Assembly (NCBI GenBank): GCA_016290665.1
Contig: JAEEUW010000001.1
Location: 1-55,034 of the forward strand
Length of the DNA: 55,034 nt
Direction of reading: 5' to 3'
Source: Clostridiaceae bacterium
Lineage (GTDB): Bacteria > Bacillota > Clostridia > Oscillospirales > Acutalibacteraceae
In this document: piece after piece, positions 6,044-25,155 of the stretch
Position numbering within the stretch: the stretch's first letter is position 1
How the letters are laid out: every line of letters starts with the position of its first letter
Notes under the pieces: generated by a model
Seen by the model: only the letters and a program-made list of their open reading frames with translations
Told to the model about the DNA's origin: nothing
Databases searched by the model: none
Made by a program: the position numbers and the translations under genes

Positions 6044-6099
6044 TAAAAACAAACACCACCCGTGCGGCGCTGCGCCGCGGGCGGTGTTTTTCTTTTTGC
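6044..6099. terminator. Bidirectional intrinsic terminator between the Rrf2 gene and xylB
   Basis: GC-rich hairpin ACACCACCCGTGCGGCG...GCCGCGGGCGGTGT (about 6053..6087), flanked by an A-run upstream and TTTTTCTTTTTG downstream. It lies between convergent genes. Confidence 0.65.
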
Positions 6100-6104: not shown

Positions 6105-7493
6105 TCAGGGCGTCTGCCGGTAAAAGTCTTTCAGCATCGGATAGAGCTGTCTGTATTTCCGGTATTTTTGTTCATAGATCGCCGCCGTTTCGGCGTTCGG
6201 CGTAATCACTGCCTTGATCCGGGGCGCGTGACGGAGGCCGAGCGCAAGCAGGGCGCCGCCGTAGGCCGGGCCCTCGTTGTCGATGACGTGCAGTTCCAGA
6301 TGCAGCACGTCGGCAAGGATCTGCATCCACGCGTCGCTTCTGGTGCCGCCGCCGCAGACCGTGGCTGCGCTGACCGGGGGGCAAAGCGCCAGGCAGTCTT
6401 TGATGGCGAACGAGACGCCCTCGAACACGGCCGTCTGCAGATCCTCGCGCGTCGTGGCGTGCGTCAGCCCGAGGAACGCGCCGCGCACGTCGCCATCGTT
6501 ATGGGGACAGCGTTCGCCCGAAAGATAGGGCATGAAATAGAGCTCGTTCGAGGGGTCGCCGGCTTTGACGTCATAGCCGCTTTGCAGCACGCGCTCGTTG
6601 AGCCATTGGTTGCAGCTTGCGGCGGACAGGATGCAGCCCATCAGGTGCCATTTGCCGTTCGCGTGGCAAAACGAATGCAGGGCCGGGTTATCCGGCTGAA
6701 CAAACGAATCGGTCGGCAAAAAGACCGTGCCGCTCGTGCCCAGCGAGATGTTGCACTGCCCGGCGCGCACCGTGTCGGTGCCGATGGCCGCGGCGGCGTT
6801 GTCGCCCGCGCCGGCCGCCACGTCGGCGCAAAGGCCGAGCGCCGTCGTCCGGCCGATGACGGCTTCGCTTTCATAAACGGCGGGCAGCATGGCTTCCGTA
6901 ATGCCGAGGACGCCGAGCATCTCCTTCGACCAGCAGCGGTGTGCCACGTCAAAGAAGAGCGTGCCCGAGGCGTCGCTGACGTCGGTGGCGAACACGCCGG
7001 TCAGCCTGTAGTTGATATAATCCTTCGGCAGGCAGAGCTTGCTGCACCGCGCAAACAGCGCCGGCTCATTCTCTTTGACCCAAAGAATCTTCGGCGCGGT
7101 GAAGCCGGCAAAGGCGATGTTGCCGGTCAGCGCCTGCAGCCGCTCTTTGCCGATCACGCTGTTGAGCCAGTCGGTCTCTTTGCCGGTTCGCGTGTCGTTC
7201 CAGAGGATCGCCGGGCGCAGCACGCGGTCGTCCTCGTCCAGCATGACGAGGCCGTGCATCTGGCCGCCGACGCCGACGGCCCTGACCGCCGTCTTGTCAA
7301 TATCCGCCGTCAGCTCTTCGATGCCGCTGCAAACGCCGTTCCACCAGTCCTCGGGGTTCTGCTCGCTCCAATGGGGCTTCGGCTGCAGCAGCGGATAGCT
7401 TTTGGAAACGGTGCGCAGAATCACGCCGTTTTCATCTGTCAGAATCAGTTTGACCGCCGACGTGCCGAGGTCGACGCCGATTGCATACTTCAT
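6105..7493 (-). CDS. xylB: FGGY-family carbohydrate kinase, xylulokinase-like
   Basis: 462 aa with N-terminal GVDLGTSAVK and C-terminal VCGGGTRSDAWMQILADV motifs. AAGGGAG SD. Last gene of the array. Confidence 0.75.
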   Translation of the reverse strand: MKYAIGVDLGTSAVKLILTDENGVILRTVSKSYPLLQPKPHWSEQNPEDWWNGVCSGIEELTADIDKTAVRAVGVGGQMHGLVMLDEDDRVLRPAILWNDTRTGKETDWLNSVIGKERLQALTGNIAFAGFTAPKILWVKENEPALFARCSKLCLPKDYINYRLTGVFATDVSDASGTLFFDVAHRCWSKEMLGVLGITEAMLPAVYESEAVIGRTTALGLCADVAAGAGDNAAAAIGTDTVRAGQCNISLGTSGTVFLPTDSFVQPDNPALHSFCHANGKWHLMGCILSAASCNQWLNERVLQSGYDVKAGDPSNELYFMPYLSGERCPHNDGDVRGAFLGLTHATTREDLQTAVFEGVSFAIKDCLALCPPVSAATVCGGGTRSDAWMQILADVLHLELHVIDNEGPAYGGALLALGLRHAPRIKAVITPNAETAAIYEQKYRKYRQLYPMLKDFYRQTP

Positions 7494-7496
7494 GAC

Positions 7497-9029
7497 TCAC
7501 GCTCCCTTTCGGATCGTTTTCTTTTTGGTGTCATTGTCCCACCAGAGCTCCACCGTAACCGGGCGGTCGCTTTCGATCTGCACCGTCGGCTCGTCGTGTT
7601 CGCTTTTGCGCGCGTCGCACAGCAGCGACAGCGTGGCGTCTTTGCCGAACGGATAGCGCTCCACGCCGTGGCGTTCGGTCAGATTGATGTGCCAGCGGAT
7701 CACGTGGTTTTCGGCGTCCGGCTTGATGCCGAAGACGAACTCAAACAGCACGCTGATGGGGGCGAGGCCCGTCCAGCCGACGAAATCGTCCTTGGCCGGG
7801 CTGCCCTTGCACGGCCGGCCCTTGGCGTCCGGGCAGGGCGCATAGTTTTCAAACACCGTGTCGGTGTCGTTGAAGACCGCAACCACGTTGTCGAGGTAGT
7901 TCAGGCCGATCTTGTGTGAAAGGCCGAATTTGCCGTAGCGGTCGAGCCCGCACAGCACCATGTAGTTCGTCGGCGCCCAGACGCCGCCCTTCCAGTAGCC
8001 GCCCGCCGGGTTGAACTCCGGATGGTCGGCGGAAAGCGCGGGCACCATGCAGGGCGTGGCGAATTCACGCTTGTTCGTCAGGTGGGCGATGAAACGCTCG
8101 GCCCGGTCGGCGGGCACGATCTCGGCCAGCAGCGCCCAATAGGCGCCGATGTGCTTGACGTAGTTGAGCTCGCCGTTTTTCCAAAGGTCATAATAGAACG
8201 CCGTCTTGTCATCCCAAAGGATGTCGTTGACCACGGAAATCAGCCGCTCGCGTTCCGCCTGCAGGCCGGCGGCGTCGGCTTCCCGGCCGAGAACCTTGGC
8301 CATATCCATCAGGATCCTGCAGTTCATCAGCTCCTGCATGCAGGCGTCGTTCCAGACCATGTGGCCGTGCGAGAACGATTCGTGATACCCCGCCTGCATC
8401 CGCGGCAGGTTGTCCATGCCGCAGCCCCAGCCGCTGGACCAATAGGTTCCGTCGCGCCAGGTGTGGTTCAGCCGCATCCATTCGTGATAGGCCATCAGGC
8501 ACGGGAAGACCCTGGCCAGGCGGTCGCGGTCGCCGAAGTTTTTGAAGTATTCCCATTCGCACCACGCCATGATGTCGGGGCCGGTGGCGGCGGGGTCAAA
8601 CCGCGTGAAATGATCGCGGCCGGTGTCCTCTTCGATCTCGCGGCAGATGTAGCCGTCGGCGTACTGGTGGGAATAGAAATTGTTGAGCGTGGCCTGAAAG
8701 TCAAAGGACCGTGCGCCGTATTTTCCGAACATCAGGATGAACGAGGAATCCCACATAAAGATGCAGCCGTTGAAGGCGGTGTCGATGAAGTTCGACACGA
8801 AGCCCGCGCCGCTGATCGGCCTGCAAAGGTTGCCGAAGGCCAGCTTCCACGTTTTGTCATAGCAGCGCAGCACGTCGTCATGGCCCTGCCAGACGGGCCG
8901 CGGCAGCCGGTCCTTTTCCGCTTCCCAGGTCGGCAGCGGCGCGTTTTCCGGCGTCATGTTTACAAAGCGGTTTTCTTTGAAAAAGCGGTTTTCAAGAATC
9001 GTGAATCTATCATAAAAGCTCTGATTCAT
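7497..9029 (-). CDS. GH63/GH37-like (alpha/alpha)6-barrel glycoside hydrolase (MGH1-like)
   Basis: ORF 7497..9056 trimmed to ATG 9029 (AAGGAG 9 nt upstream; the listed start is a GTG overlapping the upstream stop). Trehalase/GH63-type patterns (FMWDSSF, YWSSGWGCGMDNLPR). No signal peptide. Confidence 0.6.
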   Translation of the reverse strand: MNQSFYDRFTILENRFFKENRFVNMTPENAPLPTWEAEKDRLPRPVWQGHDDVLRCYDKTWKLAFGNLCRPISGAGFVSNFIDTAFNGCIFMWDSSFILMFGKYGARSFDFQATLNNFYSHQYADGYICREIEEDTGRDHFTRFDPAATGPDIMAWCEWEYFKNFGDRDRLARVFPCLMAYHEWMRLNHTWRDGTYWSSGWGCGMDNLPRMQAGYHESFSHGHMVWNDACMQELMNCRILMDMAKVLGREADAAGLQAERERLISVVNDILWDDKTAFYYDLWKNGELNYVKHIGAYWALLAEIVPADRAERFIAHLTNKREFATPCMVPALSADHPEFNPAGGYWKGGVWAPTNYMVLCGLDRYGKFGLSHKIGLNYLDNVVAVFNDTDTVFENYAPCPDAKGRPCKGSPAKDDFVGWTGLAPISVLFEFVFGIKPDAENHVIRWHINLTERHGVERYPFGKDATLSLLCDARKSEHDEPTVQIESDRPVTVELWWDNDTKKKTIRKGA

Positions 9030-9052
9030 GGTAAAAAGCTCCTTTCCCTCGT

Positions 9053-9889
9053 TCACAGAATCGTCAGTTCCCGCGCAATACCGTCATAGCCGCCGCCGGT
9101 AATGAACTGCGGCAGACCGGGCGCGAGTTCGCTTTCAAAGCTGAAGTGGATATGGCCGGCAAGCACTGCCTTGATCAGCGGCTGCGATTTGATGAAATCG
9201 ATGGCCTCCATTGTGGCGCCGCGCGGCCGGATCTCGATGGCCCGCCACTCGTCAACCGGCAGATCGTCCTCCTCGCAGCCCGCAAGGTAACAGCTCGTGC
9301 CGGGGCCGGAGCGCTCCACGTGATACTCATAAAGCGACCGTTCAAACAGCGGCACGTGCAGACACAGGATGATCGGCAGCCCCTTGGCAAGCTCTTTTTT
9401 GAGCCGCGTGATCTGCCAGGCCTCAAACTGATGGTAGCTGTCGTCGATGGCGACGAAGTTCACGCCGCCGACGATCCTCGAATGGAAGAACAGCGGCACC
9501 CCCAGACCCTCGGGCAGCATTTCGCGGAAGCTGTTCATTTTGTAGGCGCGGTCCTCATAGGCTTCGCCCAAATAATGGGAAAACTCATGGTTGCCCGCAG
9601 CAAAGAAAACCTTTTCCTCAGAAAGAATTGTCCGGGCGAATTCAAAATTTGCCTGCGAGGTGAAGTCGATCAGGTCGCCCGTGTGGACCATCAGATCGCA
9701 GTGCGCTTTTGCGTAGGCCAGTTGTTCCCGAAAAAGCTGTTCTCTGTTGGATGAATCGAACCGTCCGGCCAGCGCATGCTTGCGTTCGTTGTCGCGCTCA
9801 TCCACCCGCGCAATGTGCGAGTCGGTGACATGCAAAAGCGTAAGCGGGCGTTCCAGTCCGATGTGCAGTGTGTTTTTCAGCAGTTCCAT
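9053..9889 (-). CDS. Metallophosphoesterase (calcineurin-like), cytoplasmic
   Basis: 278 aa with motifs HVTDSH, GDLID, GNHEF and AGHIH. GGGAGG SD. Confidence 0.75.
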   Translation of the reverse strand: MELLKNTLHIGLERPLTLLHVTDSHIARVDERDNERKHALAGRFDSSNREQLFREQLAYAKAHCDLMVHTGDLIDFTSQANFEFARTILSEEKVFFAAGNHEFSHYLGEAYEDRAYKMNSFREMLPEGLGVPLFFHSRIVGGVNFVAIDDSYHQFEAWQITRLKKELAKGLPIILCLHVPLFERSLYEYHVERSGPGTSCYLAGCEEDDLPVDEWRAIEIRPRGATMEAIDFIKSQPLIKAVLAGHIHFSFESELAPGLPQFITGGGYDGIARELTIL

Positions 9890-9901
9890 GGCTTCCTCCC
9901 G

Positions 9902-12085
9902 TTAGATGGAAAACAGTCCGTTCTGAACAGTCAGTTCAAAGCGCGCGCAGATGTCTTCAGACGACGTACCCAGCAGCAGCGTGTGTTCGCCGTCGTGCAG
10001 ACCGAAACGCATATCCGCGTCGTAATAGCAGAATGCGTCTTTTGAAAGCCGCAGCGTGACGTCCTTCGTTTCGCCCGCCCGCAGCGCGACCCGCGCATAG
10101 CCCTTCAGCTCTTTGACCGGGCGCACAACAGCGCAGTCGTGCGAAGCGAGATAGAGCTGCGCCACCTCGGCGCCGTCGCGCCCGCCGGTATTCGTGAGCC
10201 GGAACGAGACCGCCGCGCCGTCTTCTTCAACGGAAAGCGCCGCGTCGCTGACCGCAAAGGTCGTGTAGCTCAGGCCGAAGCCGAAGGGGAACAGCGGCCT
10301 GCCGTCGTTGTCGCAATAGCCGTACCCGCGGCCGGAGGGCTTGTGGGCATAGAACAGCGGCAGCTGGCCCACGGTCTGCGGAATCGTGATCGGCAGCTTG
10401 CCGGACGGATTTGTGATTCCGAACAGAATCTCGGTCAGCGCCCGCGCGCCCTGTTCGCCGGGGTACCAGCTTTCGACCACGGCTTTCGTTTGGCCGATCC
10501 AGGCCGTCATGTCAATCGGCGCGCCGTTTTGCAAAACGACGACTGCATCGGGATCGGCGGCGCACAGGCGCAGAATGGAGCGTTCCTGGTCGTCCGTCAC
10601 ACTTTGGGCGGCGGCGTCCACGATCAGGCCGCCGTCGCTTTCGCTTGCTTTATGGACGGAGACCGACGGCAGCCGCAGATCGCTGCGGTCGCTGCCCTCC
10701 CCTTCCAGAATGGTGGTGAAATAGAAGTTGACGTCGCAGGTCGGGGCGAGCGTTTCGATTTCATCGGGCTCGCCGAAGAGCACCTCCGCTTCGCCGCCGA
10801 AGAATTCGCGCAGGGCTTCCAGCGGCGTGGGAGCGTCCTCGCCGCGCCAGGGCGCCTGATAGGGCCCGGAATAGTTGGCGCCGATCGGGATCAGCTTTGC
10901 GCTTTGGCCGAAGACGCCGACGCGTTTGACCCGGTCCTTTTGCAGCGGCAGAACGCCGTCGTTCTTGAGCAGCACGATGGCTTCGCGCGCCGCCTCGAGC
11001 GCCAGCGCTTTATGGGCCGGGCAGCGCACAAGGTCGTTCGCCGCGTCGCCGTTAGCGAACGGATCGTCAAACAGGCCGATGCGGAACTTTGCCGTCAGGA
11101 TGCGCAGAACGTTTTGATCAAGCTCCCGTTCTGTCAGATATCCCTTTTTCACCGTTTCCTTTACCGCGGCGTATTCGTTGAACGGCAAGATCACATCCAG
11201 CCCTGCTTTGAGCGCTTTCGCTGCGGCCTTCGCGTCGGAATCCACCAGCCGGTGGGCGGTGCGCAGGCCCTCCACGCCCCAGTAATCGGACACCACGAAG
11301 CCCCGAAAGCCCCAGTCGCCGCGCAGGATGTCGGTCAGCAGGCGCCTGTTCGCGCTGCAGGGCACGCCCTCCCAGCCGTTGTAGGCCGCCATGACGGACT
11401 GCGCGCCCGCGTCGAAGCAGGCTTTGAACGGCGGCAGGATCGTTTCGCGCATGGTGCGCTCGCTCGTTTCGGCATAGTTGGAATCGCGGCCGCCGAAGCC
11501 GTAGTTGTCGGCAAAATGCTTCGGTGTGGCAATCACGCCGTTTTTTGCAAGGCCGCGGCACATGGCGGCGCCCATGTCGCTTGTCAGCCTGACGTCTTCG
11601 CCGAAGGTTTCCACCGTGCGGCCCCAGCGGCAGTCGCGCGCCAGGTTGACCACCGGCGCAAACACCTGCCGCACGCCGACCGCGGCGCACTCCTTGCCGA
11701 TGGCGTCCGCCACGCGTTCCGCAAGCGCGGGATCGAACGACGACGCCAGACCGATCGGCTGCGGGAAGTTCGTGCACATGCCCCACTGGGCGCCGTGCAG
11801 CGCTTCGCCGTTTTCAATCGGCGGAATACGGTGCGGCTGCGCCTCGATGCTGGCTTTCACATCTTTGTTGATCTTTGCCGCCACCTCGGCGGGCGCGGCC
11901 GGGGTCTCGCGCTTCTGGTGCATGAAATGCCCCGGGTTGCGGTAGCTGCCGCAGAGCGGATCGCGGCGGGCGTCGTAATCGCCGTCCACGTCAAAATACA
12001 TGTCGGCCGTCACCTGCCGGATCTTTTCGTCGAGTGTCAGCTCGCGCAGCAACGCCGCCGCGCGCGCTTCGGGTGATGGAATCAT
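9902..12085 (-). CDS. GH3 beta-glucosidase-like glycoside hydrolase
   Basis: ORF 9902..12142 trimmed to ATG 12085. GH3 N- and C-domains with the nucleophile region GFRGFVVSDYWG and a fibronectin-like C-terminus. Confidence 0.88.
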   Translation of the reverse strand: MIPSPEARAAALLRELTLDEKIRQVTADMYFDVDGDYDARRDPLCGSYRNPGHFMHQKRETPAAPAEVAAKINKDVKASIEAQPHRIPPIENGEALHGAQWGMCTNFPQPIGLASSFDPALAERVADAIGKECAAVGVRQVFAPVVNLARDCRWGRTVETFGEDVRLTSDMGAAMCRGLAKNGVIATPKHFADNYGFGGRDSNYAETSERTMRETILPPFKACFDAGAQSVMAAYNGWEGVPCSANRRLLTDILRGDWGFRGFVVSDYWGVEGLRTAHRLVDSDAKAAAKALKAGLDVILPFNEYAAVKETVKKGYLTERELDQNVLRILTAKFRIGLFDDPFANGDAANDLVRCPAHKALALEAAREAIVLLKNDGVLPLQKDRVKRVGVFGQSAKLIPIGANYSGPYQAPWRGEDAPTPLEALREFFGGEAEVLFGEPDEIETLAPTCDVNFYFTTILEGEGSDRSDLRLPSVSVHKASESDGGLIVDAAAQSVTDDQERSILRLCAADPDAVVVLQNGAPIDMTAWIGQTKAVVESWYPGEQGARALTEILFGITNPSGKLPITIPQTVGQLPLFYAHKPSGRGYGYCDNDGRPLFPFGFGLSYTTFAVSDAALSVEEDGAAVSFRLTNTGGRDGAEVAQLYLASHDCAVVRPVKELKGYARVALRAGETKDVTLRLSKDAFCYYDADMRFGLHDGEHTLLLGTSSEDICARFELTVQNGLFSI

Positions 12086-12214
12086 GGCGCAGTCCCCTTT
12101 CTGTTTGCGGCAAGAGCAGGCCGAAAAGCCCCGGGCCCGCAAACCCGCGCCGCGCGGATCGTTGACCCTCCGGGCGTATCCCCGGATCCGGAAGGAGGCG
12201 CACGGCGGTCTTGC

Positions 12215-13348
12215 CTATACAATCGGCGGGTTTTTGAACACATCGCGCACGGCCTCCAGATAGCCGTAGCCCCAGACGTCGTCCGGCTCGAGATAGCTCA
12301 TTTCGGTCCACTCGTTCCACGAATTGATCGTGATGAGCGGCACGTCGTTATAGGCGTCCGCAAAGTCTTTCGCCATCTGCAGACCCTTTTTGAAGTTTTC
12401 GGGCGTGTTGTTTTTCATGATGGGCCGCGTCAGAAACAGGTGGCGCGGATTGTTGTCCCAGCCGATGGTCATGTGCGGATAATAGGGCACCTTGTAATCC
12501 CGGCGGATGCGGTCCCATTCTTTCTGTACGTCGGGCAGGATCTCGAGATAATCGCGGTCGCAGTCCACAAAATGACAGAACTGATAATGCGTCACGGAAT
12601 CAAAGCCGAGCAGCTCCACCAGGTCCTTGGTGGAGCCTTCCCGGGCGCTGTCCACGCCGCTGACGTTGACCGCGTGTTCGGCATAGATCGTCGCCTGCAG
12701 ATGCAGACCGGGGAAGCCGGCTTCTCTGGTCAGGGTGCGGAAGTGCTCCAGCGCTTCGCGCGTCTTGTCGATACCGCCGAGGCCGCGCACGAGGTTGGAC
12801 ATCTCATAGATCATGAACACCGGGCAGCCGTCGATCTTGTAATAGTTCGGCCGTTTGAAATACAGGTCGATCACGCGGCGGCAGACGCGGTCAAATTCCT
12901 CGCGCGGCTGCGAGCCGAACCAGATGATCTCGTCGAGGCCCGACTGGCGTTTATCCCAGGTGTAGCCCGCGTCGTGGTTGGCCCACATGAGATAGAACTG
13001 CATCTCTTCGTTGTTCTTTGCGCCGAGGAAGCCCTCGTCCAGACACTGCTCCAGAAACGGGCGGCGGTCATACCAGTACCAGTCATAGATGAACACGTTG
13101 ACGCCGTGGCGCAGCGCTTCTTTGATCTGAAACGCCATCACCTCGGGGTCGGCTTCGTCCACCGTGCCCCAAAGGGGCTTGCGCGGCAGGATCTGGCCCT
13201 CCACGCGCGCTTCGGCAGAAAGCACCGACTGCCATTCGCCGATCCCCTGCTCCCAGAACTGGCGGGCGCGGGGTTCTTTTCCGGTATAGGACGGCCAGAT
13301 ATAGGCCGCAACGTCATATTTTTTCATGGACAACCATTCCTTTTTCAT
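12215..13348 (-). CDS. WbsX-like (PF14307-type) TIM-barrel glycosyl hydrolase/transferase-like protein
   Basis: 377 aa. The N-terminal pattern YDVAAYIWPSY...FWEQGIGEWQSV resembles the YLPQFH...WWGxGFTEW signature of the WbsX family. ATGA overlap with the upstream stop; alternative start ATG 13327. Confidence 0.6.
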   Translation of the reverse strand: MKKEWLSMKKYDVAAYIWPSYTGKEPRARQFWEQGIGEWQSVLSAEARVEGQILPRKPLWGTVDEADPEVMAFQIKEALRHGVNVFIYDWYWYDRRPFLEQCLDEGFLGAKNNEEMQFYLMWANHDAGYTWDKRQSGLDEIIWFGSQPREEFDRVCRRVIDLYFKRPNYYKIDGCPVFMIYEMSNLVRGLGGIDKTREALEHFRTLTREAGFPGLHLQATIYAEHAVNVSGVDSAREGSTKDLVELLGFDSVTHYQFCHFVDCDRDYLEILPDVQKEWDRIRRDYKVPYYPHMTIGWDNNPRHLFLTRPIMKNNTPENFKKGLQMAKDFADAYNDVPLITINSWNEWTEMSYLEPDDVWGYGYLEAVRDVFKNPPIV

Positions 13349-15165: not shown

Positions 15166-15471
15166 TCGGTTCTGCCCTCTTTCCTTCTAATCTTTCACGC
15201 CGGTCACGGAGAACCGTGAACGGCGAAATCGCCGACAAAGAACGGTCTTATGCTTTGATGGTTCGCAGCGCCCGGTCCGTTGCGGTGGGCTCATTGCCGA
15301 TATCATACGTGCCGGGGCCCGTCGCGCGGAAGGTCCCGCTTTCTCCGTGGCCATCGGGTTGAACCACTCGTGTTTATTTTTGCCAAACGGGTTCGGGTGA
15401 CCGGCCGTGCCGGTTCCGACGCCGCCTTTTCGGGCGGCGGGGTTTGGTTCTGTCACAAGGGGAAGACAGAC

Positions 15472-16485: not shown

Positions 16486-16509
16486 GGGTCGTTCCTCCTC
16501 AAATCAGCC

Positions 16510-17907: not shown

Positions 17908-17938
17908 AAGGAATCCCTCCCGGGACAAATGATTCTTG

Positions 17939-20011
17939 TTACAATGCAAGACCCGCCGCGCCGTCTTCCGGCTGGCCGCCGCCCGCAAACAGCGTGACGC
18001 CGCCGTCGGGCTGCGCGCGGCTGCCGTCGGGCAGCACCGCCTGCAGCCAGAAGCGGTCGACCGTCAGGGTGACGGTTTTAGTTTCACCCGGCTGCAAAAA
18101 GACCGACCCGAACGCGCACAGCTGGCAGTTCGGCGTTTTGGTGCGGCTGTCTTTCAGTTTCGCGTAGCATTGCACGACCTCGCGCCCGGCAAGCGCGCCG
18201 GTGTTGGTCACGGAGACGGAGATCGTGACGTCTTGTTCCGTTTGCCCGATCAGCGTCGGCGCGCCAAAGGCAAACGCGGTATAGCTCAGACCGTAGCCGA
18301 AGGGATAGAGCGGCTTTTCGCGCAGATAGCGGTAGGTACGCCCCTCCATGTCGTAGTTTTCCATCGGGGGCAAAGCGTTGTCTTCCCGATAGAACGTGAT
18401 CGGCAGCCGGCCGCTCGGGTTCGTTTTGCCGCAAAGCACGTTGGCAATCGCCAGACCGCCCAGCGCGCCGGGGTACCAGCCGTGGAGCACGGCCTTCGCC
18501 TTGGTTCGCACGGCTTCGCCGAGATCGGCGCAGGAGCCGCACAGCACCACGACCGCCACGTTTTCGCAAACGGCGCAGACCTGTTCGGCCAGCCGCATCT
18601 GACACGCGGGCAGATGCATCGTCTTGCGGTCGCCGCCCTCGGTGAAGGCGTTGTCAAAGCCGAGCTCCTCGCCCTCCACGGTGCGGTCGAGACCGAGGCA
18701 AAGAATTGTCAGGTCCGCCTCTTCGGCGGCGGCAAGGCCTTCGCTGGTCAGATCGGAAAACTCGCTCCAGCGGGAGCCGACGCCGTCGCAGACCGGCGAA
18801 CCGTCGGCCACGGTGACCGCGGCATTCGGGAACGCGCGGCGCACGCCGTCGGCAACGGTGACGTATTCGTCGGCGTGGCCGTTGTAGTTGCCCTCGAGCG
18901 ACAGCTCGTTCATGGCCGTCGGGCCGACCACGGCGATCCGCAGCGGTTGCGTCGGGTCCAGCGGCAAAAAGCCGTTCTTGTTTTCGAGCAAAACGACGGT
19001 CTCTTCGGCGGCGCGCAAGCTCAGCGCCTTGTGCTCTTTGCAGGAGACAACGGCATACGGCACGTCGGAAAACGGGCGCGCCGGTTCAAATTCGCCGAGC
19101 TTGGCGCGGATCGTGAACAGGCGCTCGGCGGCCGCCGTAATTTCTTCGTCGGTGACGAGATCTTCCTCATACGCGTCGATCAGCGCCTCATAGGCGCCGC
19201 CGCAGTTGAGCTCGCAGCCGGCTTTCAGCGCCATGGCCGCCGCTTCGGTCAGCGTGGCGGCACTGTGGTGGCCGTGACAGATATCGGCAATCGCGCCGCA
19301 GTCGGAAACGAAGTAGCCCGCAAAGCCCCATTGTCGGCGCAGAATCTCCATCAGCGCCCCGCTGGCGCAGCAGGGCTCGCCGTTGGTGCGGTTATAGGCG
19401 CCCATCACGCCGGCAACCCCCGCTTCCACCGCCTTTTGAAACGCGGGGAGATAGGTCTCGTGCAGATCCTTCTGCGACACCACGGCGTCAAAGCCGTGGC
19501 GCTTGCGTTCGGGGCCGGAATGCGCCGCAAAATGCTTGGCGCAGGCGGCCGCTTTGAAAAAGGCGCCGTCGCCCTGCAGGCCGGCAATATAGGCGCAGGC
19601 AATCTGCGACGTCAGAAACGGGTCTTCGCCGCAGGTCTCCTGCCCGCGGCCCCAGCGCGGGTCGCGGAAGATGTTGATATTCGGCGCCCAGTAGGTCAGG
19701 CCCTTATAGATGCCGCGGTCGCCGTGCAGGACGCTTTTGTTATATTTGGCGCGGCCCTCTTGCGCAATCGCCGCGGCGACCTCGCCCGTCAGCGCGGGGT
19801 CGAAGCTCGCCGCCATGCCGATCGACTGCGGAAACACGGTTGCAACCCCGGCGCGCGCCACGCCGTGGCACGCCTCGTTCCACCAGTTATAGGCATGAAT
19901 CCCCAACCGTTCGATGGCAGGCGATTCAAACAAAAGCTGCGACATTTTTTCTTCTGCCGTCATCTGCGAGACCAGCCGCCGCGCCGTTTGGCGCGCTTTT
20001 TCCAGTTCCAT
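17939..20011 (-). CDS. GH3 beta-glucosidase/beta-xylosidase-like glycoside hydrolase
   Basis: 690 aa. The N-terminus LFESPAIERLGIHAYNWWNEACHGV is typical of GH3 xylosidase/glucosidase enzymes. Nucleophile region GFAGYFVSDCGA. Confidence 0.88.
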   Translation of the reverse strand: MELEKARQTARRLVSQMTAEEKMSQLLFESPAIERLGIHAYNWWNEACHGVARAGVATVFPQSIGMAASFDPALTGEVAAAIAQEGRAKYNKSVLHGDRGIYKGLTYWAPNINIFRDPRWGRGQETCGEDPFLTSQIACAYIAGLQGDGAFFKAAACAKHFAAHSGPERKRHGFDAVVSQKDLHETYLPAFQKAVEAGVAGVMGAYNRTNGEPCCASGALMEILRRQWGFAGYFVSDCGAIADICHGHHSAATLTEAAAMALKAGCELNCGGAYEALIDAYEEDLVTDEEITAAAERLFTIRAKLGEFEPARPFSDVPYAVVSCKEHKALSLRAAEETVVLLENKNGFLPLDPTQPLRIAVVGPTAMNELSLEGNYNGHADEYVTVADGVRRAFPNAAVTVADGSPVCDGVGSRWSEFSDLTSEGLAAAEEADLTILCLGLDRTVEGEELGFDNAFTEGGDRKTMHLPACQMRLAEQVCAVCENVAVVVLCGSCADLGEAVRTKAKAVLHGWYPGALGGLAIANVLCGKTNPSGRLPITFYREDNALPPMENYDMEGRTYRYLREKPLYPFGYGLSYTAFAFGAPTLIGQTEQDVTISVSVTNTGALAGREVVQCYAKLKDSRTKTPNCQLCAFGSVFLQPGETKTVTLTVDRFWLQAVLPDGSRAQPDGGVTLFAGGGQPEDGAAGLAL

Positions 20012-20044
20012 GAGCGCCTCCTGTGGTTCGGTGTTTCGTCTGCT

Positions 20045-20827
20045 TCAGGCAGACGGAAGCTCAACTTCCACCAGCACGGGGAAATGATCGGACGGATACA
20101 GACCGCCGGGGTACGCGTCGCGCAGCACGCGGTAGGAGCGCACCTGCACGTCGCCCTTCACGAAGCAGTAATCGATGATTGCGGGGGGCTCGTCGTATTT
20201 GTCCGTGACAAACACTTCACAGTGGAAAGTGGCGCCGTCGTCGCTGACCGGCGCAAGCAGCCGCGCATCCCGGAACCCGCCCGCAATCACGGCGCGGTAG
20301 GGCGCGGAATCCGGCGTCACGTTGAAATCGCCGGTGAAGAACGCGGGCAGATCCGGGCAGATCTCCTCCGCCTTTTCGGCAACCAGCTCGGCGCCCTTCT
20401 GCATGGCGACGACGCCTCTGTGATCCAGATGCGTGTTGAAATGCACGAACTGTCTGCCGGCGTCGGTTTCCTGCAGCCTGGCATAGGAGCAGATCCGCAC
20501 ACAGGCGGCGTCCCAGCCCTTCACGCCGGGCACGTCCGGCGTTTCGCTGAGCCAGAAGGAGCCGGCATCCAGCAGCGCAAACTTTTCTTTTTTATAAAAC
20601 ACGGCGGAGAATTCGCCTTCCGTTTTGCCGTCGTTCCGTCCGACGCCGACGTAGGCATAGTCGGGCAGGCCGGCGCAAAGCGCTTTGATCCAGTCATAAT
20701 GCGCCTCCTGCACGCCCAGCGTGTCCGGGTCGGCTTTGCGGATCGTGTCCAGCACCAGCTCCGTGCGGCACGGCCAGTCGCGGCCGTCCTTGCCGCCGCA
20801 AAGCAGATTGAAGCTCATGATTTTCAT
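20045..20827 (-). CDS. Endonuclease/exonuclease/phosphatase (EEP) family protein
   Basis: ORF 20045..20845 trimmed to ATG 20827 (AAGGGAG 8 nt upstream; the upstream ATG forms an ATGA overlap with the GH38 stop). Motifs MSFNLL, LGVQEA and PSDHFPV. Confidence 0.8.
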   Translation of the reverse strand: MKIMSFNLLCGGKDGRDWPCRTELVLDTIRKADPDTLGVQEAHYDWIKALCAGLPDYAYVGVGRNDGKTEGEFSAVFYKKEKFALLDAGSFWLSETPDVPGVKGWDAACVRICSYARLQETDAGRQFVHFNTHLDHRGVVAMQKGAELVAEKAEEICPDLPAFFTGDFNVTPDSAPYRAVIAGGFRDARLLAPVSDDGATFHCEVFVTDKYDEPPAIIDYCFVKGDVQVRSYRVLRDAYPGGLYPSDHFPVLVEVELPSA

Positions 20828-20841
20828 GGCCGTTTCTCCCT

Positions 20842-23800
20842 TCATCTGACAAGTTTGATGGTTTTGATCTCAAACGGGCGGAAGAACAGCGTGAGCTTGC
20901 CGCCGTCCGCCGGCAGTTCTCCCTGCACGTCCTCCAGCAGATTGGTCAGCTGCGCTTTTTTGATCGGCGCCGACAGCGTCAGGTCGGTGCGGGTTTTGCT
21001 GCCCTCGCATTCATACAGGCGCAGCACCACGGCGCCGCTGTCGTCTTCGGCGGGCTTCACCGCCTCCACGATCACGTTCGGCGCGCCGACGGCAGCGAAC
21101 GGCGGAAGGTTTGCCGCCCCCTTTGCGTCGGCAACGGGCACGTTCAGCAGATAGGCGGGCTGCACCACCGTTTCGGCCGAAAAGTCGCCGGCGTGCGGCA
21201 GCAGCGCATAGGTCATTTCATGCAGCCCCCTGTCGCCCGTAAAGTCCGGGTGGGTACCGCCGCGGTGGAGCGACAGACGCAGGTTGCAGTCCAGCACACA
21301 GATGCCGTATTTGCAGTCGTTGAGCACGGCGACGCCGAAGCGCGGCTCGCTGATATCGGTGAAGTTGCGGTTGCAGACTTCGAATTTTGCATATTCCAGA
21401 CTGTTGTTGGCGGTCGTCGGGCGTTCGATGGAGCCGAACTGGATCTCGCTTCTGGCGCGGGTGGCCGCAACGTCCAGATCGAAGCCGACCTTCAGCAGGC
21501 GGTGCGGGCTGTTCCAGTTCACCAGCGTGTGGAAATCGATGCGCGGCGAGTCGGCGTAGCAGACCAGATCCTGCGTCACGGTCGTGCCGTTTTCGATTTC
21601 GAACGTGCTGCGCAGACGGATCTCGACCGCGCCGTCGGTCACAACGCTTCTGCCGCAAAAACCCTGCACGGGCTGCAGCTTCTCGATCACGTCGCGCTCC
21701 ACGTCCCAGTTGTCCCAGGCAAGGGGCACATCTTCGCCGAACAGCAGCACGCCCAGCGGCGCGCCGCCCTTTTTGCGCAGCTCGCGGCCGGAGGCTTTGT
21801 CAAGCAGGGACGCGATGTAGCCGTTTTCGTCAAAGGTCAGCGTGGCGAACGGCGTTTCCAGCCTCGTGCCGTCATAGGAAAACGGCGAGGGCGCGTCCAG
21901 CGGCCGATCGCTCATGCGAAGCACGGCGGAGCCGAAGCCGGGCAGCTTCACGCCGCCGACGGCCAGCTTTTCTTTGCCGCACAGGTCAATATAACGCTGC
22001 GAGGGATAGTCGGCCGCAAAGCCCGCCGCGTTCAGCACGGCGACGTCGCCGCGTGGGAAGGACAGCGTGTTGAACAGCGTCACGCTGTCGCTGCCGTCGG
22101 TCAGCTTTTCGGCGTAGGCGGCCGCCGCGTCGGCGTAGCTTTGCAGCAGGTCGTCCATCTCGGTCCGGTAGACGTCATAGACCGGCTGGATGCAGGTGCC
22201 GGGCAGGATGTCGTGGAACTGGTTTTTGAGCAGCGTCTTCAGCCAGCGGTCGCTGTTTTCGTTGCGCTTTTGGCCGGAAAGAACGTTGAAATATTCCATG
22301 TTGCGCAGAGCGTATTCCGCCTTGCGGTTTTTGCGCTTCACGTCGTGCATCTGGGTCAGCGTGCCGCGGTGCAGCTCCAGATAGAGCTCGTCGTCATAGA
22401 CCGGCAGATCGTCCTTCTGCGCCTCCAGCTCTTTGCCGAAATCGCTGATCGTCATCGATTCGATCTCGGGCAGGCCTTCCGTTTCGGAGGCGCGCAGCGA
22501 GGTTTCGATCATGCCCGGGGTCGGGCCGCCGCCGCCGTCGCCGAAGCCGTAGGCCAGAAGGCGCAGGTCGGAGGCATCCTTGAGCTGCAGGTCGCGCGTG
22601 GCGGCGCTGCAGTCGTTGACGTCGGGCCAGCAGTGGGTGCGGTTGAAGTGGGTGATTACCTCGCTGCCGTCAAGTCCCTTCCAGACGAAGCTTTCATAAG
22701 GGAACCGGTTCAGCTCGTTCCAGCCGATCTTGGTCGTGTAGAAGTATTTGACCTCGCTCTGACGCATAATCTGCGGAATGTTGGCGTTGTAGCCGAAGGT
22801 ATCGGGGAGCCAGAAGCTGTCGGCCGTGTAGCCGAAGTTTTCGCGCGTGAACTGCTGCCCCTTCAGGAACTGGCGCGCCATCAGCTCGCCCGAGGTGATG
22901 TTGCAGTCGCATTCCACGTAAACGCCGCCGTTCGGCTCATAGCGGCCCTCGGCCACACGTTTTTTCATCTCCGCAAAGATGGCGGGATAGTATTCCTTCA
23001 TCCATTCGCCGTGCAGCGCGGAGGACTGAATGAACTTATAGCTCGGATACTGCTCCATCAGGTGCAGCGCGTTGGCGTAGGTGCGCGCACATTTGCGGAT
23101 CGTTTCCGACACGGGCCAGAGCCAGGCGGTGTCCATGTGGCTGTGGCCGATGATGCCCACACGGCCGAACACGCGGCTGTTGCCGCCGCGGAAAAACGGG
23201 CGCGAAATCGCAAGCGCCTTGCGCACGCCCTCGGCCACGGCCGCTTCGGAGGCGTCCTTCGGATAGAGCGGCAGCACGTCGTTGATCTGTCGCAGCGCTT
23301 TTTTGGCGCGGGCGGAAGCAAAGCTGTCCTGCGGCAGCCGGCGCGCGGCGTTCAGCAGCTCGCGCAGGTCGAAGATCAGCGTGAACACTTCTTCGTCACG
23401 GGTGCAGATCTGCACGCCGTCAAAGCTGTGGCGGAAGGTCTGCGACGTGTCCGGCGCAAAATAGTCGTCGTAGGGATCGGTGTTGGGATCGTAATGGCCG
23501 GCGTAGCATTCAAACGCAAGCGCCAGCGTTTCTCCCGCTTTCGGCTTGCCGAGGTACTGCGCCGCATGGTGACCGCCGATAAAGTCGCGGTTTTTTGTGT
23601 TATAGATACCCTTGGGCACGCTGTTCAGGAAGAACAGCTGCTCATTGCCGCCGCAGGCCGACACCGCATAGAGCGCTTTGCCGTCCAGCGCGTCGGGCAC
23701 CGTGAACGTGCCCCTGAGCCACATGTTGTTCCATTCGCCGCCCCAGGACGTGCCGGGCGCAATCGGGGCAAAGCCGGCTTCCGGCACCGCGCGCAGGTGC

Positions 23801-23931
23801 TCTTCGGTGAACAGCGCCTGCGGGTTCTGCAGCTCGCCGACCTTCCGATACACCAGTTGTTCATAGATCTTCAGCGCGTGGCCGAGCTTTTCATAGATGC
23901 GATTGTTCAGGTTCTCGTTATACATAATCAC
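20842..23931 (-). CDS. GH38 alpha-mannosidase
   Basis: 1029 aa with the GH38 signature IIGHSHMDTAWLWP. Size and domain order match cytosolic bacterial GH38 enzymes. Start is GTG 23931 or ATG 23925. Confidence 0.9.
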   Translation of the reverse strand: MIMYNENLNNRIYEKLGHALKIYEQLVYRKVGELQNPQALFTEEHLRAVPEAGFAPIAPGTSWGGEWNNMWLRGTFTVPDALDGKALYAVSACGGNEQLFFLNSVPKGIYNTKNRDFIGGHHAAQYLGKPKAGETLALAFECYAGHYDPNTDPYDDYFAPDTSQTFRHSFDGVQICTRDEEVFTLIFDLRELLNAARRLPQDSFASARAKKALRQINDVLPLYPKDASEAAVAEGVRKALAISRPFFRGGNSRVFGRVGIIGHSHMDTAWLWPVSETIRKCARTYANALHLMEQYPSYKFIQSSALHGEWMKEYYPAIFAEMKKRVAEGRYEPNGGVYVECDCNITSGELMARQFLKGQQFTRENFGYTADSFWLPDTFGYNANIPQIMRQSEVKYFYTTKIGWNELNRFPYESFVWKGLDGSEVITHFNRTHCWPDVNDCSAATRDLQLKDASDLRLLAYGFGDGGGGPTPGMIETSLRASETEGLPEIESMTISDFGKELEAQKDDLPVYDDELYLELHRGTLTQMHDVKRKNRKAEYALRNMEYFNVLSGQKRNENSDRWLKTLLKNQFHDILPGTCIQPVYDVYRTEMDDLLQSYADAAAAYAEKLTDGSDSVTLFNTLSFPRGDVAVLNAAGFAADYPSQRYIDLCGKEKLAVGGVKLPGFGSAVLRMSDRPLDAPSPFSYDGTRLETPFATLTFDENGYIASLLDKASGRELRKKGGAPLGVLLFGEDVPLAWDNWDVERDVIEKLQPVQGFCGRSVVTDGAVEIRLRSTFEIENGTTVTQDLVCYADSPRIDFHTLVNWNSPHRLLKVGFDLDVAATRARSEIQFGSIERPTTANNSLEYAKFEVCNRNFTDISEPRFGVAVLNDCKYGICVLDCNLRLSLHRGGTHPDFTGDRGLHEMTYALLPHAGDFSAETVVQPAYLLNVPVADAKGAANLPPFAAVGAPNVIVEAVKPAEDDSGAVVLRLYECEGSKTRTDLTLSAPIKKAQLTNLLEDVQGELPADGGKLTLFFRPFEIKTIKLVR

Positions 23932-23941
23932 TCGCCCTCCG

Positions 23942-24991
23942 TCAAGCCTTGTTTTCGGGTTGCGGATTCACCACGGTCAGGATGTCCTTGTTCGAAACGA
24001 TGAACGTAATTCGCTCTTCGATGGAGGGACCGCCGTGGCTGCCGCCGATGCCGCCGTGATCGGTGGTGATCAGGATCAGCCAGTCTTCGCTGTCATAGGT
24101 CGGACGTTCCGTGATTGTTTCGATGATGTCGGCGCCGGTCGCCTCCGCGTCGCGGAAGGCGCTGATATATTTCGGATTCCCCAGGCCGAAGCCACTGCCA
24201 TGACCGGCATGATCGGTATATTCCAGCGTGGAGAAGATGAAGTCGGAGCAGTCTTTCTTTCTCAGGTCGGACAGAATGTTGAATTTCGTACCCGGATCAA
24301 AGAGTGCGCGGCGATAGGTCGCGTTGACGCCGTTTTCGCGCGCATAGACCTTTTCGGGATAATAGGTCGCGTCCTTTTTGCTGAAATGACCGTCCCAAGA
24401 AACGTAAAACGCGCTCTTGTCCACCGTGCCGTCTTCCACCAGCGAAAGCAGCAGCGTCTTAGGCTCCACTTCCTTCGGTTGGCCGTTGTTGTTGATGTGA
24501 TGCACATCGGCCCAGGCGCCGGTCAGCATGGAGCACCAGCCGGGCGCGGTCGAGGTGGCCTGGGTGTTTTCCGCGGGGAAGTTGACGCCGCCCGCAAAGC
24601 TGAAGACCGCGTGTCCGCCGTCGGAAAGCAGCATGTTGATGGCGCTCTTCTTTGCCGTTGCGAGCAGACGGAACGTGTCGACCTGACAGCCGTCATAGCC
24701 GATCACGATGGCTTTCTTTTCGGTCTTGCCCTCCGGCAGCGGCGAAGCAAAGTGCGCTTTGATCAGATCATAGACCGCGGTCTGCGGCAGCGCCTCCTGC
24801 CAGGTGTTTTCCAAAACCGGCAGCGTTTCCAACGACTGTTGGTAATCCTCCGCGGCAAGGACGGCGTCGTCGCCTTCCGCGAGCCACTTGCTGGGATGAT
24901 ACGTCAGGTTATACCAGACGTAGCCGCCGATGAGTCCGCCGATGAGCAGAACGACGAGAACGGGAATCAGGATCTTTGCTGCTTTCTTCAT
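23942..24991 (-). CDS. Membrane-anchored alkaline-phosphatase-superfamily phosphodiesterase (ENPP-like)
   Basis: ORF 23942..25006 trimmed to ATG 24991 (GGGAGG 7 nt upstream). N-terminal anchor ILIPVLVVLLIGGLIGG. Motifs VIGYDGCQ, TSTAPGWCSMLTG, YTDHAGHGSG and ITTDHGG. Confidence 0.75.
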   Translation of the reverse strand: MKKAAKILIPVLVVLLIGGLIGGYVWYNLTYHPSKWLAEGDDAVLAAEDYQQSLETLPVLENTWQEALPQTAVYDLIKAHFASPLPEGKTEKKAIVIGYDGCQVDTFRLLATAKKSAINMLLSDGGHAVFSFAGGVNFPAENTQATSTAPGWCSMLTGAWADVHHINNNGQPKEVEPKTLLLSLVEDGTVDKSAFYVSWDGHFSKKDATYYPEKVYARENGVNATYRRALFDPGTKFNILSDLRKKDCSDFIFSTLEYTDHAGHGSGFGLGNPKYISAFRDAEATGADIIETITERPTYDSEDWLILITTDHGGIGGSHGGPSIEERITFIVSNKDILTVVNPQPENKA

Positions 24992-25036: not shown

Positions 25037-25073
25037 ATAATATCACGAGGTGTCCAACAAATGTCCAACAAAA
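25037..25073 (-). promoter_or_regulatory. Extended -10 promoter with 23-bp tandem direct-repeat operator (copy 1)
   Basis: Minus strand reads TTTTGTTGGACATTTGTTGGACA (25073->25051), then 8 nt, then TGaTATTAT (25045->25037). It lies 45 nt upstream of ATG 24991. The 23-mer is identical to 33711->33689. Confidence 0.7.
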
Positions 25074-25116: not shown

Positions 25117-25155
25117 ACAAAAAGAGCACCCGCCGGGGCGGGTGCGTTCCTTTTT
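25117..25155. terminator. Bidirectional intrinsic terminator ending the upstream minus-strand transcription unit
   Basis: Hairpin GCACCCGC-CGGG-GCGGGTGC (25126..25145) with an A-run on the left and GTTCCTTTTTG on the right, just downstream of the stop at 25164. Confidence 0.7.

Follow-up and report, generated by a model that had tools for sequence, protein, structure and literature searches.

A 55,034-nucleotide (nt) stretch of contig JAEEUW010000001.1 from a Clostridiaceae bacterium, hereafter the window, carries a 12-gene array (6105-24991) in which glycosidases are mixed with phosphoesterases, and relatives carry shuffled versions of this array. Owing to this mixture and its recurrence, we consider the chances about even that the array is a catabolic cluster through which uncultured ruminant-gut Clostridia digest glycans that bear, or are joined through, phosphate.

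Layout and boundaries of the array

The array comprises 12 consecutive minus-strand genes, all in the frame with high GC content at third codon positions (GC3), as determined by open reading frame and Pfam analysis (Table 1). Real genes are conspicuous by their high GC3 in this window, the GC content of which is approximately 60%. In the 5' to 3' direction, the order is ENPPa, GH38, EEP, GH3a, MPEs, ENPPs, the fusion of an MBL and a TIM-barrel domain (hereafter the fusion), the WbsX-like gene, GH3b, MPEc, the GH63-like gene and the FGGY kinase gene. Start codons were adjusted to the gene calls of a metagenome contig (JGI) with an identical array, and the resulting intergenic distances along transcription are 16, -4, 33, 31, 24, 306, -4, 129, 12, 23 and 3 nt; that is, every gap is 33 nt or less except two. 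A terminator forms the upstream limit and parts the array from lipoprotein, DUF218 and VanY genes. Within the longer of the two wide gaps, a GC-rich hairpin (15420-15440) lacks a T-tail on the coding strand. Rfam (gathering thresholds) and ARAGORN detected no riboswitch, leader RNA or tRNA in the window. These features support the view that the 12 genes form one bounded, closely spaced, transcription-unit-like block.

Hydrophobic N-termini were found in only four of the 12 products, namely ENPPa, the 465-residue MPEs, ENPPs and the fusion (15-residue Kyte-Doolittle means of 2.8-3.3), while the means of the other eight do not exceed 1.5. The catalytic or metal-binding motifs are complete in all six phosphoesterases. 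An earlier interpretation made without database searches, the sequence-only reading, had proposed this 12-gene composition with its families, gaps of at most 33 nt or overlaps apart from the two long ones, six to seven phosphoesterases, four of them exported or anchored, and cytoplasmic glycosidases. Pfam assignments agree exactly with its family list, the spacing holds with the adjusted starts, and hydrophobicity singles out exactly those four enzymes.

Table 1. Genes of the array in order of transcription, with boundary and junction features (positions in the window; L088 is a related locus)
Feature	Position	Strand	Basis or remark
Bidirectional GC-rich hairpin terminator	25126-25145	both	8-bp stem, 7 GC pairs, T-runs on both strands
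Promoter-like site before first gene	25039-25067	-	TGGACA-17-GATATT, 9/12 consensus matches; consensus match only
ENPPa, membrane-anchored ENPP-like, alkaline-phosphatase superfamily	23942-24991	-	PF01663 E 1.3e-10, N-terminal transmembrane segment
GH38 alpha-mannosidase, cytoplasmic, Ams1 type	20842-23925	-	all four GH38 Pfam domains
EEP-fold phosphatase, cytoplasmic, BT3783 type	20045-20845	-	PF03372
GH3a exo-glycosidase, cytoplasmic	17939-20011	-	GH3 N, GH3 C and Fn3-like domains
MPEs, secreted calcineurin-like metallophosphoesterase	16510-17907	-	PF00149, signal peptide
ENPPs, secreted ENPP-like, alkaline-phosphatase superfamily	15472-16485	-	PF01663 E 4e-22, signal peptide
306-nt gap, module A/B junction	15166-15471	-	contains hairpin 15420-15440; L088 synteny ends here
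Secreted fusion of MBL and xylose-isomerase-like TIM barrel	13345-15165	-	Pfam, signal peptide
GH99-like ('WbsX') TIM-barrel enzyme, cytoplasmic	12215-13348	-	PF14307 E 9e-47
129-nt gap, module B/C junction	12086-12214	-	L088 nucleotide synteny stops at 12235
GH3b exo-glycosidase, cytoplasmic	9902-12085	-	GH3 domains
MPEc, cytoplasmic calcineurin-like metallophosphoesterase	9053-9889	-	PF00149
GH63-like (MGH1-like) glycosidase, cytoplasmic	7497-9029	-	PF22422, PF03200, PF01204
FGGY kinase	6105-7493	-	NCBIfam equivalog TIGR01312 XylB (xylulokinase), 502.8 bits against a cut-off of 380.25
Terminator-like hairpin 3' of last gene	6052-6071	-	8-bp stem, then TGTTTTTATG

Recurrence and modularity in related genomes

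Recurrence was assessed in 41 non-redundant loci centred on the full-length fusion, with neighbours counted within 9 kb. The most frequent neighbours are WbsX-like genes (9 of 41), GH16 (8), and secreted Metallophos genes of the MPEs type, GH3b and VanY (7 each), followed by response regulators and GH130/GH32-like propellers (6 each) and by MPEc and GH43 (5 each). EEP and ENPPs (3 each) and GH38 (2) occur less often. GH78, GH106, GH101-like, other Metallophos and MFS_2 genes also occur in these loci. A close relative, L088, encodes a fusion with 91% identity in the order GH38-EEP-GH3-MPE-ENPP-x-x-fusion-WbsX-x-GDPD-GH78-MPE-MPE-MPE. Other arrangements include GH43-MPE-fusion-WbsX-GH78-ENPP in L004, with GH3, MPE and HAD genes upstream and MFS_2 downstream, and MPEs-x-WbsX-MPEc-x-EEP-fusion-GH3b in L006 and L007.

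The association was also approached from the WbsX side, using five homologues picked for their long contigs, with neighbours not known beforehand. In four of these five loci, a phosphoesterase gene (PHP, Metallophos or ENPP) is adjacent or a few genes away. L091 reads MFS_2-MPE-GH38-DUF4838-WbsX, an ENPP-like gene adjoins WbsX in L173 with MPE and MFS_2 close by, a PHP-domain protein adjoins it in L090, and L172 holds the fusion as well (GH38-GH78-MPE-x-WbsX-GH2-MPE-GH43-abhydrolase-fusion). L174 is a counter-example, in which WbsX has no phosphoesterase nearby.

Nucleotide synteny with L088 extends over two blocks, 15420-23490 at 86% identity and 12235-15206 at 92%. Its breaks fall in the 306-nt and 129-nt gaps, the hairpin of the former lying at the edge of the first breakpoint; two extra genes are present at the first junction, and the content past the second is wholly different. 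Since synteny breaks at both long gaps, the array is composed of three modules: A, from ENPPa to ENPPs; B, the fusion with the WbsX-like gene; and C, GH3b-MPEc-GH63-XylB. Genes of different modules are re-assorted together elsewhere, as in L006 and L007, and therefore a functional link is indicated rather than chance. Conservation of the neighbourhood had been named as a check on the sequence-only reading. In many rumen Clostridia metagenome-assembled genomes (MAGs), and likewise in a Bacteroides-type polysaccharide-utilisation locus (PUL), members of these families are found side by side in varying subsets, so that accidental juxtaposition is not borne out. The idea of a single system survives in the form of a bounded, tight unit, but this unit is a mosaic of three modules and not a fixed 12-gene system.

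The Bacteroides-type PUL has the order SusC-SusD-GH92-EEP-alkaline phosphatase-GH63-like-GH125-GH20-Metallophos/PA14-AraC regulator. Of 44 metagenome loci with EEP homologues, it was found in six human-gut ones: L129 (1923-19981), L121, L122, L131, L154 and L169. It is apparently a PUL for phosphorylated mannoglycans or N-glycans that employs three phosphoesterase folds. A literature search found no publication on a PUL of the L129 kind.

The mannosidase, its neighbouring phosphatase and GH3a

In a PDB sequence search, the GH38 protein comes closest to yeast Ams1 (E 5e-135), a broad-specificity cytosolic/vacuolar mannosidase, and orthologues with 68-87% identity are present in L012, L014, L088, L091 and L172. 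The EEP gene lies directly downstream; the two open reading frames overlap by 4 nt, and most gene calls place the EEP start 18 nt further on. PDB matches of the EEP protein are 3g6s (E 2e-48) and, over the full length, 3mpr (E 3.5e-45) and 4c1r (E 1.1e-44), the last two being BT3783, deposited as 'mannosyl-6-phosphatase'. Residues N13, E47, D173, N175, D253 and H254 are invariant among its homologues. As a close homologue of BT3783, the protein is probably a mannose-6-phosphatase (sugar-6-phosphatase) of that type. In Bacteroides thetaiotaomicron, the GH38 enzyme BT3774 cuts the Man-1-phosphate linkage, and the sugar-6-monophosphatases BT3783 and BT2630 join mannosidases in stripping yeast mannan and N-glycans of their phosphorylated side chains (Cuskin et al. 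2015; PMC4978465).

GH3a is best matched in NCBIfam by the Xyl3A beta-xylosidase model (691 bits, under its cut-off), and GH3b by generic beta-glucosidase, xylosidase and arabinosidase models. All NCBIfam matches of GH3a, GH3b, GH38 and the GH63-like protein fall below cut-off, and their specificities were left unassigned.

A role in sphingolipid or inositol-phosphoceramide metabolism, which the sequence-only reading had suggested on account of the EEP protein, was rejected; this protein strongly matches sugar phosphatases, and nucleases of the PDE12 type come up no better than E ~1e-3.

A GH99-like enzyme annotated as WbsX

The WbsX-like protein has more than 6800 homologues. It belongs to PF14307 ('WbsX glycosyltransferase'), a family for which we know of no characterised hydrolase member. 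A PDB sequence search returned no match for it; however, the top 26 Foldseek matches of its AlphaFold2 model (predicted local distance difference test, pLDDT, 72) are all GH99 endo-alpha-mannosidases (E ~1e-9, template-modelling (TM) scores of 0.51-0.63). The motif N345-E346-W-T-E349 is invariant in 15 homologues and is profile-aligned onto the catalytic NEWHE of BxGH99. The protein thus combines the GH99 fold with a NEWxE motif, whereas the Pfam GH99 model (PF16317) scores 19.4 bits against a cut-off of 33, which falls short of sequence membership. In comparison with the endo-alpha-1,2-mannosidases/mannanases BtGH99, BxGH99 and human MANEA, both NEWxE and a 'YY(K/R)xDG(K/C)P(V/L)F' strand can be aligned, but identity is 12-14% and the WbsX-like protein is cytoplasmic.

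Additionally, a secreted family of ~600 residues without a Pfam match recurs in the related loci (L006 3579-5387, L007, two copies in L018, L028 and L088 12990-14810). Around the NEW motif ('GWNEWIAG'), it displays a weak local likeness to the WbsX/GH99-like protein, and it may be an exported GH99-like relative.

Exported phosphoesterases

The fusion carries an invariant HAHDDH motif at residues 133-138, which fits the HxHxDH binuclear site of the MBL fold, and its AlphaFold2 model has a pLDDT of 85.5. For the MBL half, the best Foldseek match is Pce/CbpE of Streptococcus pneumoniae (1wra/2bib; E 6e-13, TM 0.64 on target), followed by the ComEC MBL domain. Pce is likewise a secreted phosphodiesterase of the binuclear-metal MBL type with an HxHxDH motif; sequence identity is nevertheless ~15%, and the fusion lacks choline-binding repeats and has a TIM barrel as its C-terminal half. 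This TIM half is structurally closest to ketose 3-epimerases, UlaE and YcjR, that is, to sugar epimerases and not to endonuclease IV. Endonuclease IV is characterised by nine His/Asp/Glu ligands of a trinuclear zinc site on strands beta2 to beta8. In an hhalign alignment of low probability (E 0.016), made with a manually entered Nfo sequence, residues H437, E479, D509, H512, H534, D543, H545 and E574 align with Nfo H109, E145, D179, H182, H216, D229, H231 and E261. The aligned residues are invariant among homologues (in the contexts H437-P, D509-x-x-H512 and D543-x-H545), and several of the endonuclease-IV ligand residues are missing from the four cytoplasmic TIM-barrel paralogues encoded upstream in the window. 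We infer, short of proof, that both halves are phosphodiesterases, which would bring the phosphoesterase count to seven, on five folds.

More than 200 homologues of the fusion were identified, and the full-length form occurs only in ruminant-gut Clostridia MAGs, in agreement with the Firmicute host assumed by the sequence-only reading. These uncultured hosts derive from the gut of cattle, goat, sheep, buffalo and reindeer and are labelled Ruminococcaceae, Clostridiaceae, Clostridiales or Clostridia; MAGs labelled Acutalibacteraceae or Oscillospiraceae match the MBL half only.

The TIM half alone, with 65-68% identity, is found in Bacteroidales MAGs from ruminant habitats (L053, L054, L056, L058, L060, L062, L063, L066 and L071), with matches limited to query residues 325-605. 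Because the TIM half stands alone there, an inter-phylum transfer of the domain is suggested.

Both ENPP-like proteins score above the PF01663 cut-off of 23 bits (41.9 and 79.7) and retain the Ser/Thr nucleophile and two-metal-site motifs of the NPP/ENPP family. In ENPPa, these are T153-A-P-G-W, D265-HAGH and DHG316; in ENPPs, they are S84-G-P-N-W, D190-AAGH and DHG237. ENPPa had no match in the PDB sequence search or NCBIfam. ENPPs shows local likeness to the bacterial NPP structures 7mw8/2gsn, and its homologues adjoin the fusion or the GH99-like gene in L004, L011, L012, L088 and L173. MPEs contains the motifs DTH47, GD88, NHD123 and GHSH235 and a C-terminal aromatic amphipathic tail; its homologues occur in seven further fusion-centred loci. 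The nearest solved relatives of MPEs are Rv0805/Icc, and the PDB matches of both MPEs and MPEc are too remote to name a substrate.

An aromatic-rich amphipathic helix of 20-25 residues is shared by exported enzymes of unrelated folds, with 'VKAFFQPLIDRITARWNRLKSFF', '...LIRQWFADLKDFFVHLFW' and '...ILSPIMWIVTQFWKG' as examples; it is located at residues 36-58 of the fusion and at the C-termini of MPEs and ENPPs. The helix either directly follows the signal peptide or forms the very C-terminus, including in homologues from L006, L009, L019, L026 and others, and in these rumen Clostridia it may act in surface retention or docking.

The third module

Homologues of GH3b (65-83% identity) are present in seven further fusion-centred loci, and those of MPEc (56-73% identity) in L006, L007, L027, L035 and L039. 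MPEc carries the motifs DSH23, GD71, GNHE99 and GHIH245, and its nearest solved relative, again remote, is the cyclic-nucleotide phosphodiesterase Rv0805/Icc. The GH63-like protein is remotely similar to YgjK and TTHA0978, and relatives with 44-49% identity are encoded ~1.2 kb (one gene) downstream of the EEP gene in the Bacteroides-type PUL. The FGGY kinase is named XylB by NCBIfam, and no xylose isomerase gene was found in the window. XylB was seen once elsewhere, in L078, where a sequence matching only the MBL half lies ~9 kb away.

Proposed function and substrate

If the array does act on phosphate-containing glycans, the four exported metallo-phosphoesterases (two ENPP-like, one calcineurin-like and the fusion) would cut phosphodiester links or phospho-substituents of the polymer at the cell surface. 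The resulting (phospho)oligosaccharides would be imported by a transporter encoded elsewhere, as relatives possess an MFS_2 symporter. In the cytoplasm, the GH99-like endo-enzyme, the Ams1-type GH38, the two GH3 enzymes and the GH63-like enzyme would dismantle the oligosaccharides, the BT3783-type sugar-6-phosphatase and MPEc would strip residual phosphate, and the FGGY kinase would channel one product to central metabolism. Both the order of these steps and the substrate are inferred. The sequence-only reading took phosphodiester bonds as the putative target; phosphomonoesters or substituents are candidates as well.

GH63, GH99 and GH38 are the three families that trim glucosylated high-mannose glycans in eukaryotes, and the presence of GH63-like, GH99-like and GH38 enzymes together with a mannose-6-phosphatase therefore lends the cytoplasmic part a mannoside flavour. 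The sequence-only reading had listed both phosphomannan-type mannan and teichoic-acid or capsule polymers as candidate substrates, and each has gained support. Homology to BT3783, GH38 and GH99, above all the BT3783-type EEP gene adjoining GH38, favours mannosyl-phosphate structures, for instance fungal phosphomannan or phosphorylated high-mannose glycans. The same cytoplasmic set could be compatible, too, with Gram-positive wall polymers linked by Man-1-P or Glc-1-P. At the level of fold and neighbourhood, the Pce-like MBL half, the GDPD gene of the close relative L088, the rhamnosidases of sister loci and the recurrent VanY favour Gram-positive glycosyl- or polyol-phosphate wall polymers.

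We tentatively put forward a more specific version, which is possible but carries less of our confidence than the general reading. According to it, ruminant-gut Clostridia would possess modular 'phosphoglycan utilisation loci', in which the polymer is opened by exported phosphodiesterases of several folds, including a hitherto unrecognised two-headed enzyme of Pce-like MBL and endonuclease-IV-like TIM halves, and not by endo-glycosidases or lyases. A GH99-like family mis-annotated as 'WbsX glycosyltransferase' and lineage-specific exo-glycosidases would complete the degradation in the cytoplasm. The substrates would be glycosyl- or polyol-phosphate polymers, namely fungal phosphomannan or the phosphoglycans of Gram-positive walls and capsules.

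Alternative explanations

Several observations weigh against the digestion of phosphate-containing glycans. The neighbourhood of the fusion is highly variable; in several genomes it lies next to VanY, and in L086 it is found amid acetyltransferases with no glycosidase. In contrast to GH3b and MPEc of the same module, which recur near the fusion in other genomes, the GH63-like and XylB genes are near it in none of the 41 fusion-centred loci. No GH38 gene occurs in any of the 44 metagenome loci (8 kb or longer) around more distant EEP homologues (~40% identical); the adjacency of GH38 to EEP holds in this Clostridia clade and, functionally, in B. thetaiotaomicron, and is not a universal gene pair. 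The characterised enzymes to which the ENPP-like and calcineurin-like proteins are remote kin are nucleotide phosphodiesterases, and the relatives of either half of the fusion also include proteins that process DNA (the ComEC nuclease domain and endonuclease IV). The alpha-1,6-mannan backbone enzymes GH76, GH92 and GH125 are absent from the Pfam assignments of the window genes, and co-transcription of the array is deduced from spacing only. Furthermore, neither the array nor the rest of the 55-kb window encodes a transporter or a dedicated regulator. An Rrf2 gene downstream of the array groups with IscS/NifU, and an ANTAR gene upstream groups with GlnA. The co-encoded ABC, PTS or MFS transporter and regulator of a Gram-positive PUL are thus absent from the window; nor, in this Gram-positive genome, does the window hold a SusC/SusD pair or a hybrid two-component or ECF regulator. 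The sequence-only reading had made the absence of a transporter and regulator a feature of the system, which is correct for this window but peculiar to this genome, as relatives L004, L022, L086, L091 and L173 have MFS_2 transporter and response-regulator genes.

Among the competing explanations, the most probable, itself unlikely, is a mosaic without a single substrate, in which a variable chromosomal hot-spot has gathered independent cassettes that each act on a different compound and have only a promoter in common: exported esterases for phosphate scavenging, a module for mannosides and another of GH3, GH63 and xylulokinase. The termination of synteny with the 91%-identical relative exactly at the two long gaps, the wholesale replacement of the third module, the very variable neighbourhoods, the lack of a transporter or regulator and the absence of GH63-like and XylB genes from the surroundings of the fusion in other genomes would all be accounted for. 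This explanation sits poorly, however, with the genes of the modules being re-assorted side by side elsewhere, both in L006/L007 and in L172 (GH38-MPE-WbsX-MPE-fusion), with the recurrence of the phosphoesterase, mannosidase and GH63-like combination in another phylum, and with the known glycan role of the cytoplasmic EEP phosphatase. A second alternative, which we regard as less probable again, concerns wall-polymer turnover: exported Pce-like, ENPP-like and calcineurin-like esterases would trim or release a teichoic-acid-like or glycosyl-1-phosphate-linked polymer, either the cell's own or that of neighbouring Gram-positive bacteria and not a dietary or fungal glycan, and the sugars would be recycled in the cytoplasm. 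Its mechanism overlaps that of the favoured reading, and the substrate alone differs. In fold, the MBL half comes closest to a teichoic-acid phosphorylcholine esterase, seven loci have VanY (a cell-wall D,D-carboxypeptidase) no more than 9 kb from the fusion and two have DUF218 in that range, and GDPD, the fold of the GlpQ/WhyD teichoicases, is encoded in L088 and 20 kb away in the window. The variable glycosidases include the rhamnosidases GH78 and GH106, rhamnose being typical of Gram-positive wall polysaccharides, and the clostridial polymers PS-I and PS-II are oligosaccharides joined by Glc-1-P or Man-1-P diesters. Nevertheless, Pfam detected no choline-binding, SLH or other wall-binding domain in the array proteins, VanY genes adjoin the fusion mainly in a handful of low-GC MAGs related to one another, where the synteny may have been inherited, and BT3783, the nearest characterised relative of any array gene, works on yeast mannan and N-glycans. 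Scavenging of extracellular nucleic acids, in which the exported set would degrade DNA or RNA to nucleosides and phosphate while the glycosidases are unrelated passengers, appears very unlikely. The ComEC domain among the top fold matches, the endonuclease-IV ligand pattern in the TIM half and the nearest solved kin of ENPPs (nucleotide pyrophosphatases/phosphodiesterases) and of MPEs and MPEc (Rv0805/Icc) speak for it; but these similarities are remote and local (E 1e-5 to 1e-13), and the TIM half is structurally closer to sugar epimerases than to endonuclease IV. Moreover, the EEP protein groups with sugar phosphatases and not with nucleases, and the steady genomic partners are glycosidases and the GH99-like gene, not nucleoside or nucleotide transport or salvage genes.

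Relation to known systems

Gram-positive N-glycan and mannoside loci, such as those of Streptococcus with GH38, GH92 and GH125, deploy a cytoplasmic GH38 and exo-glycosidases on imported oligomannosides, as would be the case here, but they differ from the array in having ABC transporters and regulators and no phosphoesterases. The teichoicases GlpQ and PhoD (Bacillus/Staphylococcus) and WhyD (pneumococcus) resemble the exported enzymes in being phosphodiesterases that depolymerise phosphodiester-linked wall polymers, and GDPD genes exist in L088 and the window. However, each is a single gene within a phosphate-starvation or autolysin-control regulon and does not stand among glycosidases, and the array itself has no GDPD or PhoD member.

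The nearest described counterpart is MAN-PUL1/2 of B. thetaiotaomicron (GH38 BT3774, BT3783/BT2630 and GH99 BT3862; PMC4978465), with which the array shares a BT3783-homologous EEP gene (E 1e-44) beside GH38, a GH99-fold enzyme in the same locus, and the logic of joint clearance of mannosyl-phosphate branches by glycosidases and phosphatases. In contrast to that system, the array is Gram-positive without SusC/D, and its GH38, EEP and GH99-like enzymes are cytoplasmic, not periplasmic or surface-located. Its GH38 is of the Ams1 type, its GH99-like protein falls in PF14307 and not in GH99 proper, the backbone enzymes GH76, GH92 and GH125 are missing, and five further phosphoesterases of three other folds, four of them exported, are present. 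The Bacteroides-type PUL of L129 likewise combines EEP, an alkaline-phosphatase-superfamily enzyme, a calcineurin-like phosphoesterase, a GH63-like enzyme and alpha-mannosidases; it differs in having SusC/D, a GH20, an AraC-type regulator and, in place of GH38, GH92 and GH125, and in lacking the fusion and the GH99-like gene.

The partnership of GH38 with an EEP sugar phosphatase is thus already known in Bacteroides, as are the single teichoic-acid phosphodiesterases GlpQ, PhoD, WhyD and Pce. The claim of the sequence-only reading that no system of this composition had been described was therefore too strong, because the GH38-phosphatase pairing has been published. A literature search found no description of a Gram-positive locus in which glycosidases stand amid five more phosphoesterases of three other folds, of the MBL-TIM fusion family, or of a hydrolase role for PF14307 'WbsX'.

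Further observations in the window and related loci

Genes for VanY-type D,D-carboxypeptidases lie by or near the fusion in L008, L011, L022, L027, L029, L040 and L046, and DUF218 membrane-protein genes in L009 and L010; the window has its own VanY and DUF218 genes at 27316-28080 and 25721-27220. This recurrence hints at either a cell-envelope connection or inherited synteny.

A second block on the minus strand (28055-33709) consists of two GFO/IDH/MocA oxidoreductase genes bracketing four successive xylose-isomerase-like TIM-barrel genes. With weak, sub-threshold likeness to IolG, IolE, glycoside 3-dehydrogenase and levoglucosan dehydrogenase models, it may represent an oxidative sugar or inositol pathway. 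An inositol link between this block and the array was rejected, as the IolG/IolE models score far under cut-off and the three unrelated lipoprotein, DUF218 and VanY genes and a strong terminator intervene. A horizontally transferred island was not supported either; the GC content of the array (0.60-0.65) runs on into the flanks, and no integrase or repeats were seen.

Elsewhere in the window, a GDPD-family protein of 407 residues is encoded 20 kb from the array (45537-46760, plus strand), a family that L088 carries inside its array. A minus-strand block at 47976-52409 encodes a glycyl-radical enzyme (PFL-like, 828 residues) with a radical-SAM activase and a GntR/FCD regulator, after which comes a choloylglycine-hydrolase-family gene (52224-53633, plus strand).

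Biological implications

Phosphodiester-linked glycans, including teichoic acids, clostridial and streptococcal wall phosphoglycans, capsules and fungal phosphomannan, constitute a large pool of carbon and phosphorus in the gut and rumen, and their degradation is known so far through isolated enzymes such as GlpQ, PhoD, Pce and BT3783. If the array is indeed a dedicated catabolic system, it would offer a genetic handle on the rumen recycling of microbial necromass or fungal wall material, and it would give functions to large families of 'hypothetical' proteins, namely the WbsX/GH99-like family and the MBL-TIM fusion. It would also supply new phosphodiesterases for glycan analysis or for the removal of capsules and teichoic acids, and the pairing of mannosidase and sugar phosphatase known from Bacteroides would have a broader Gram-positive counterpart. 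Should the phosphoglycan-utilisation reading be true, an abundant class of microbial necromass for which no dedicated catabolic locus has been described would have one in ruminant-gut Clostridia.

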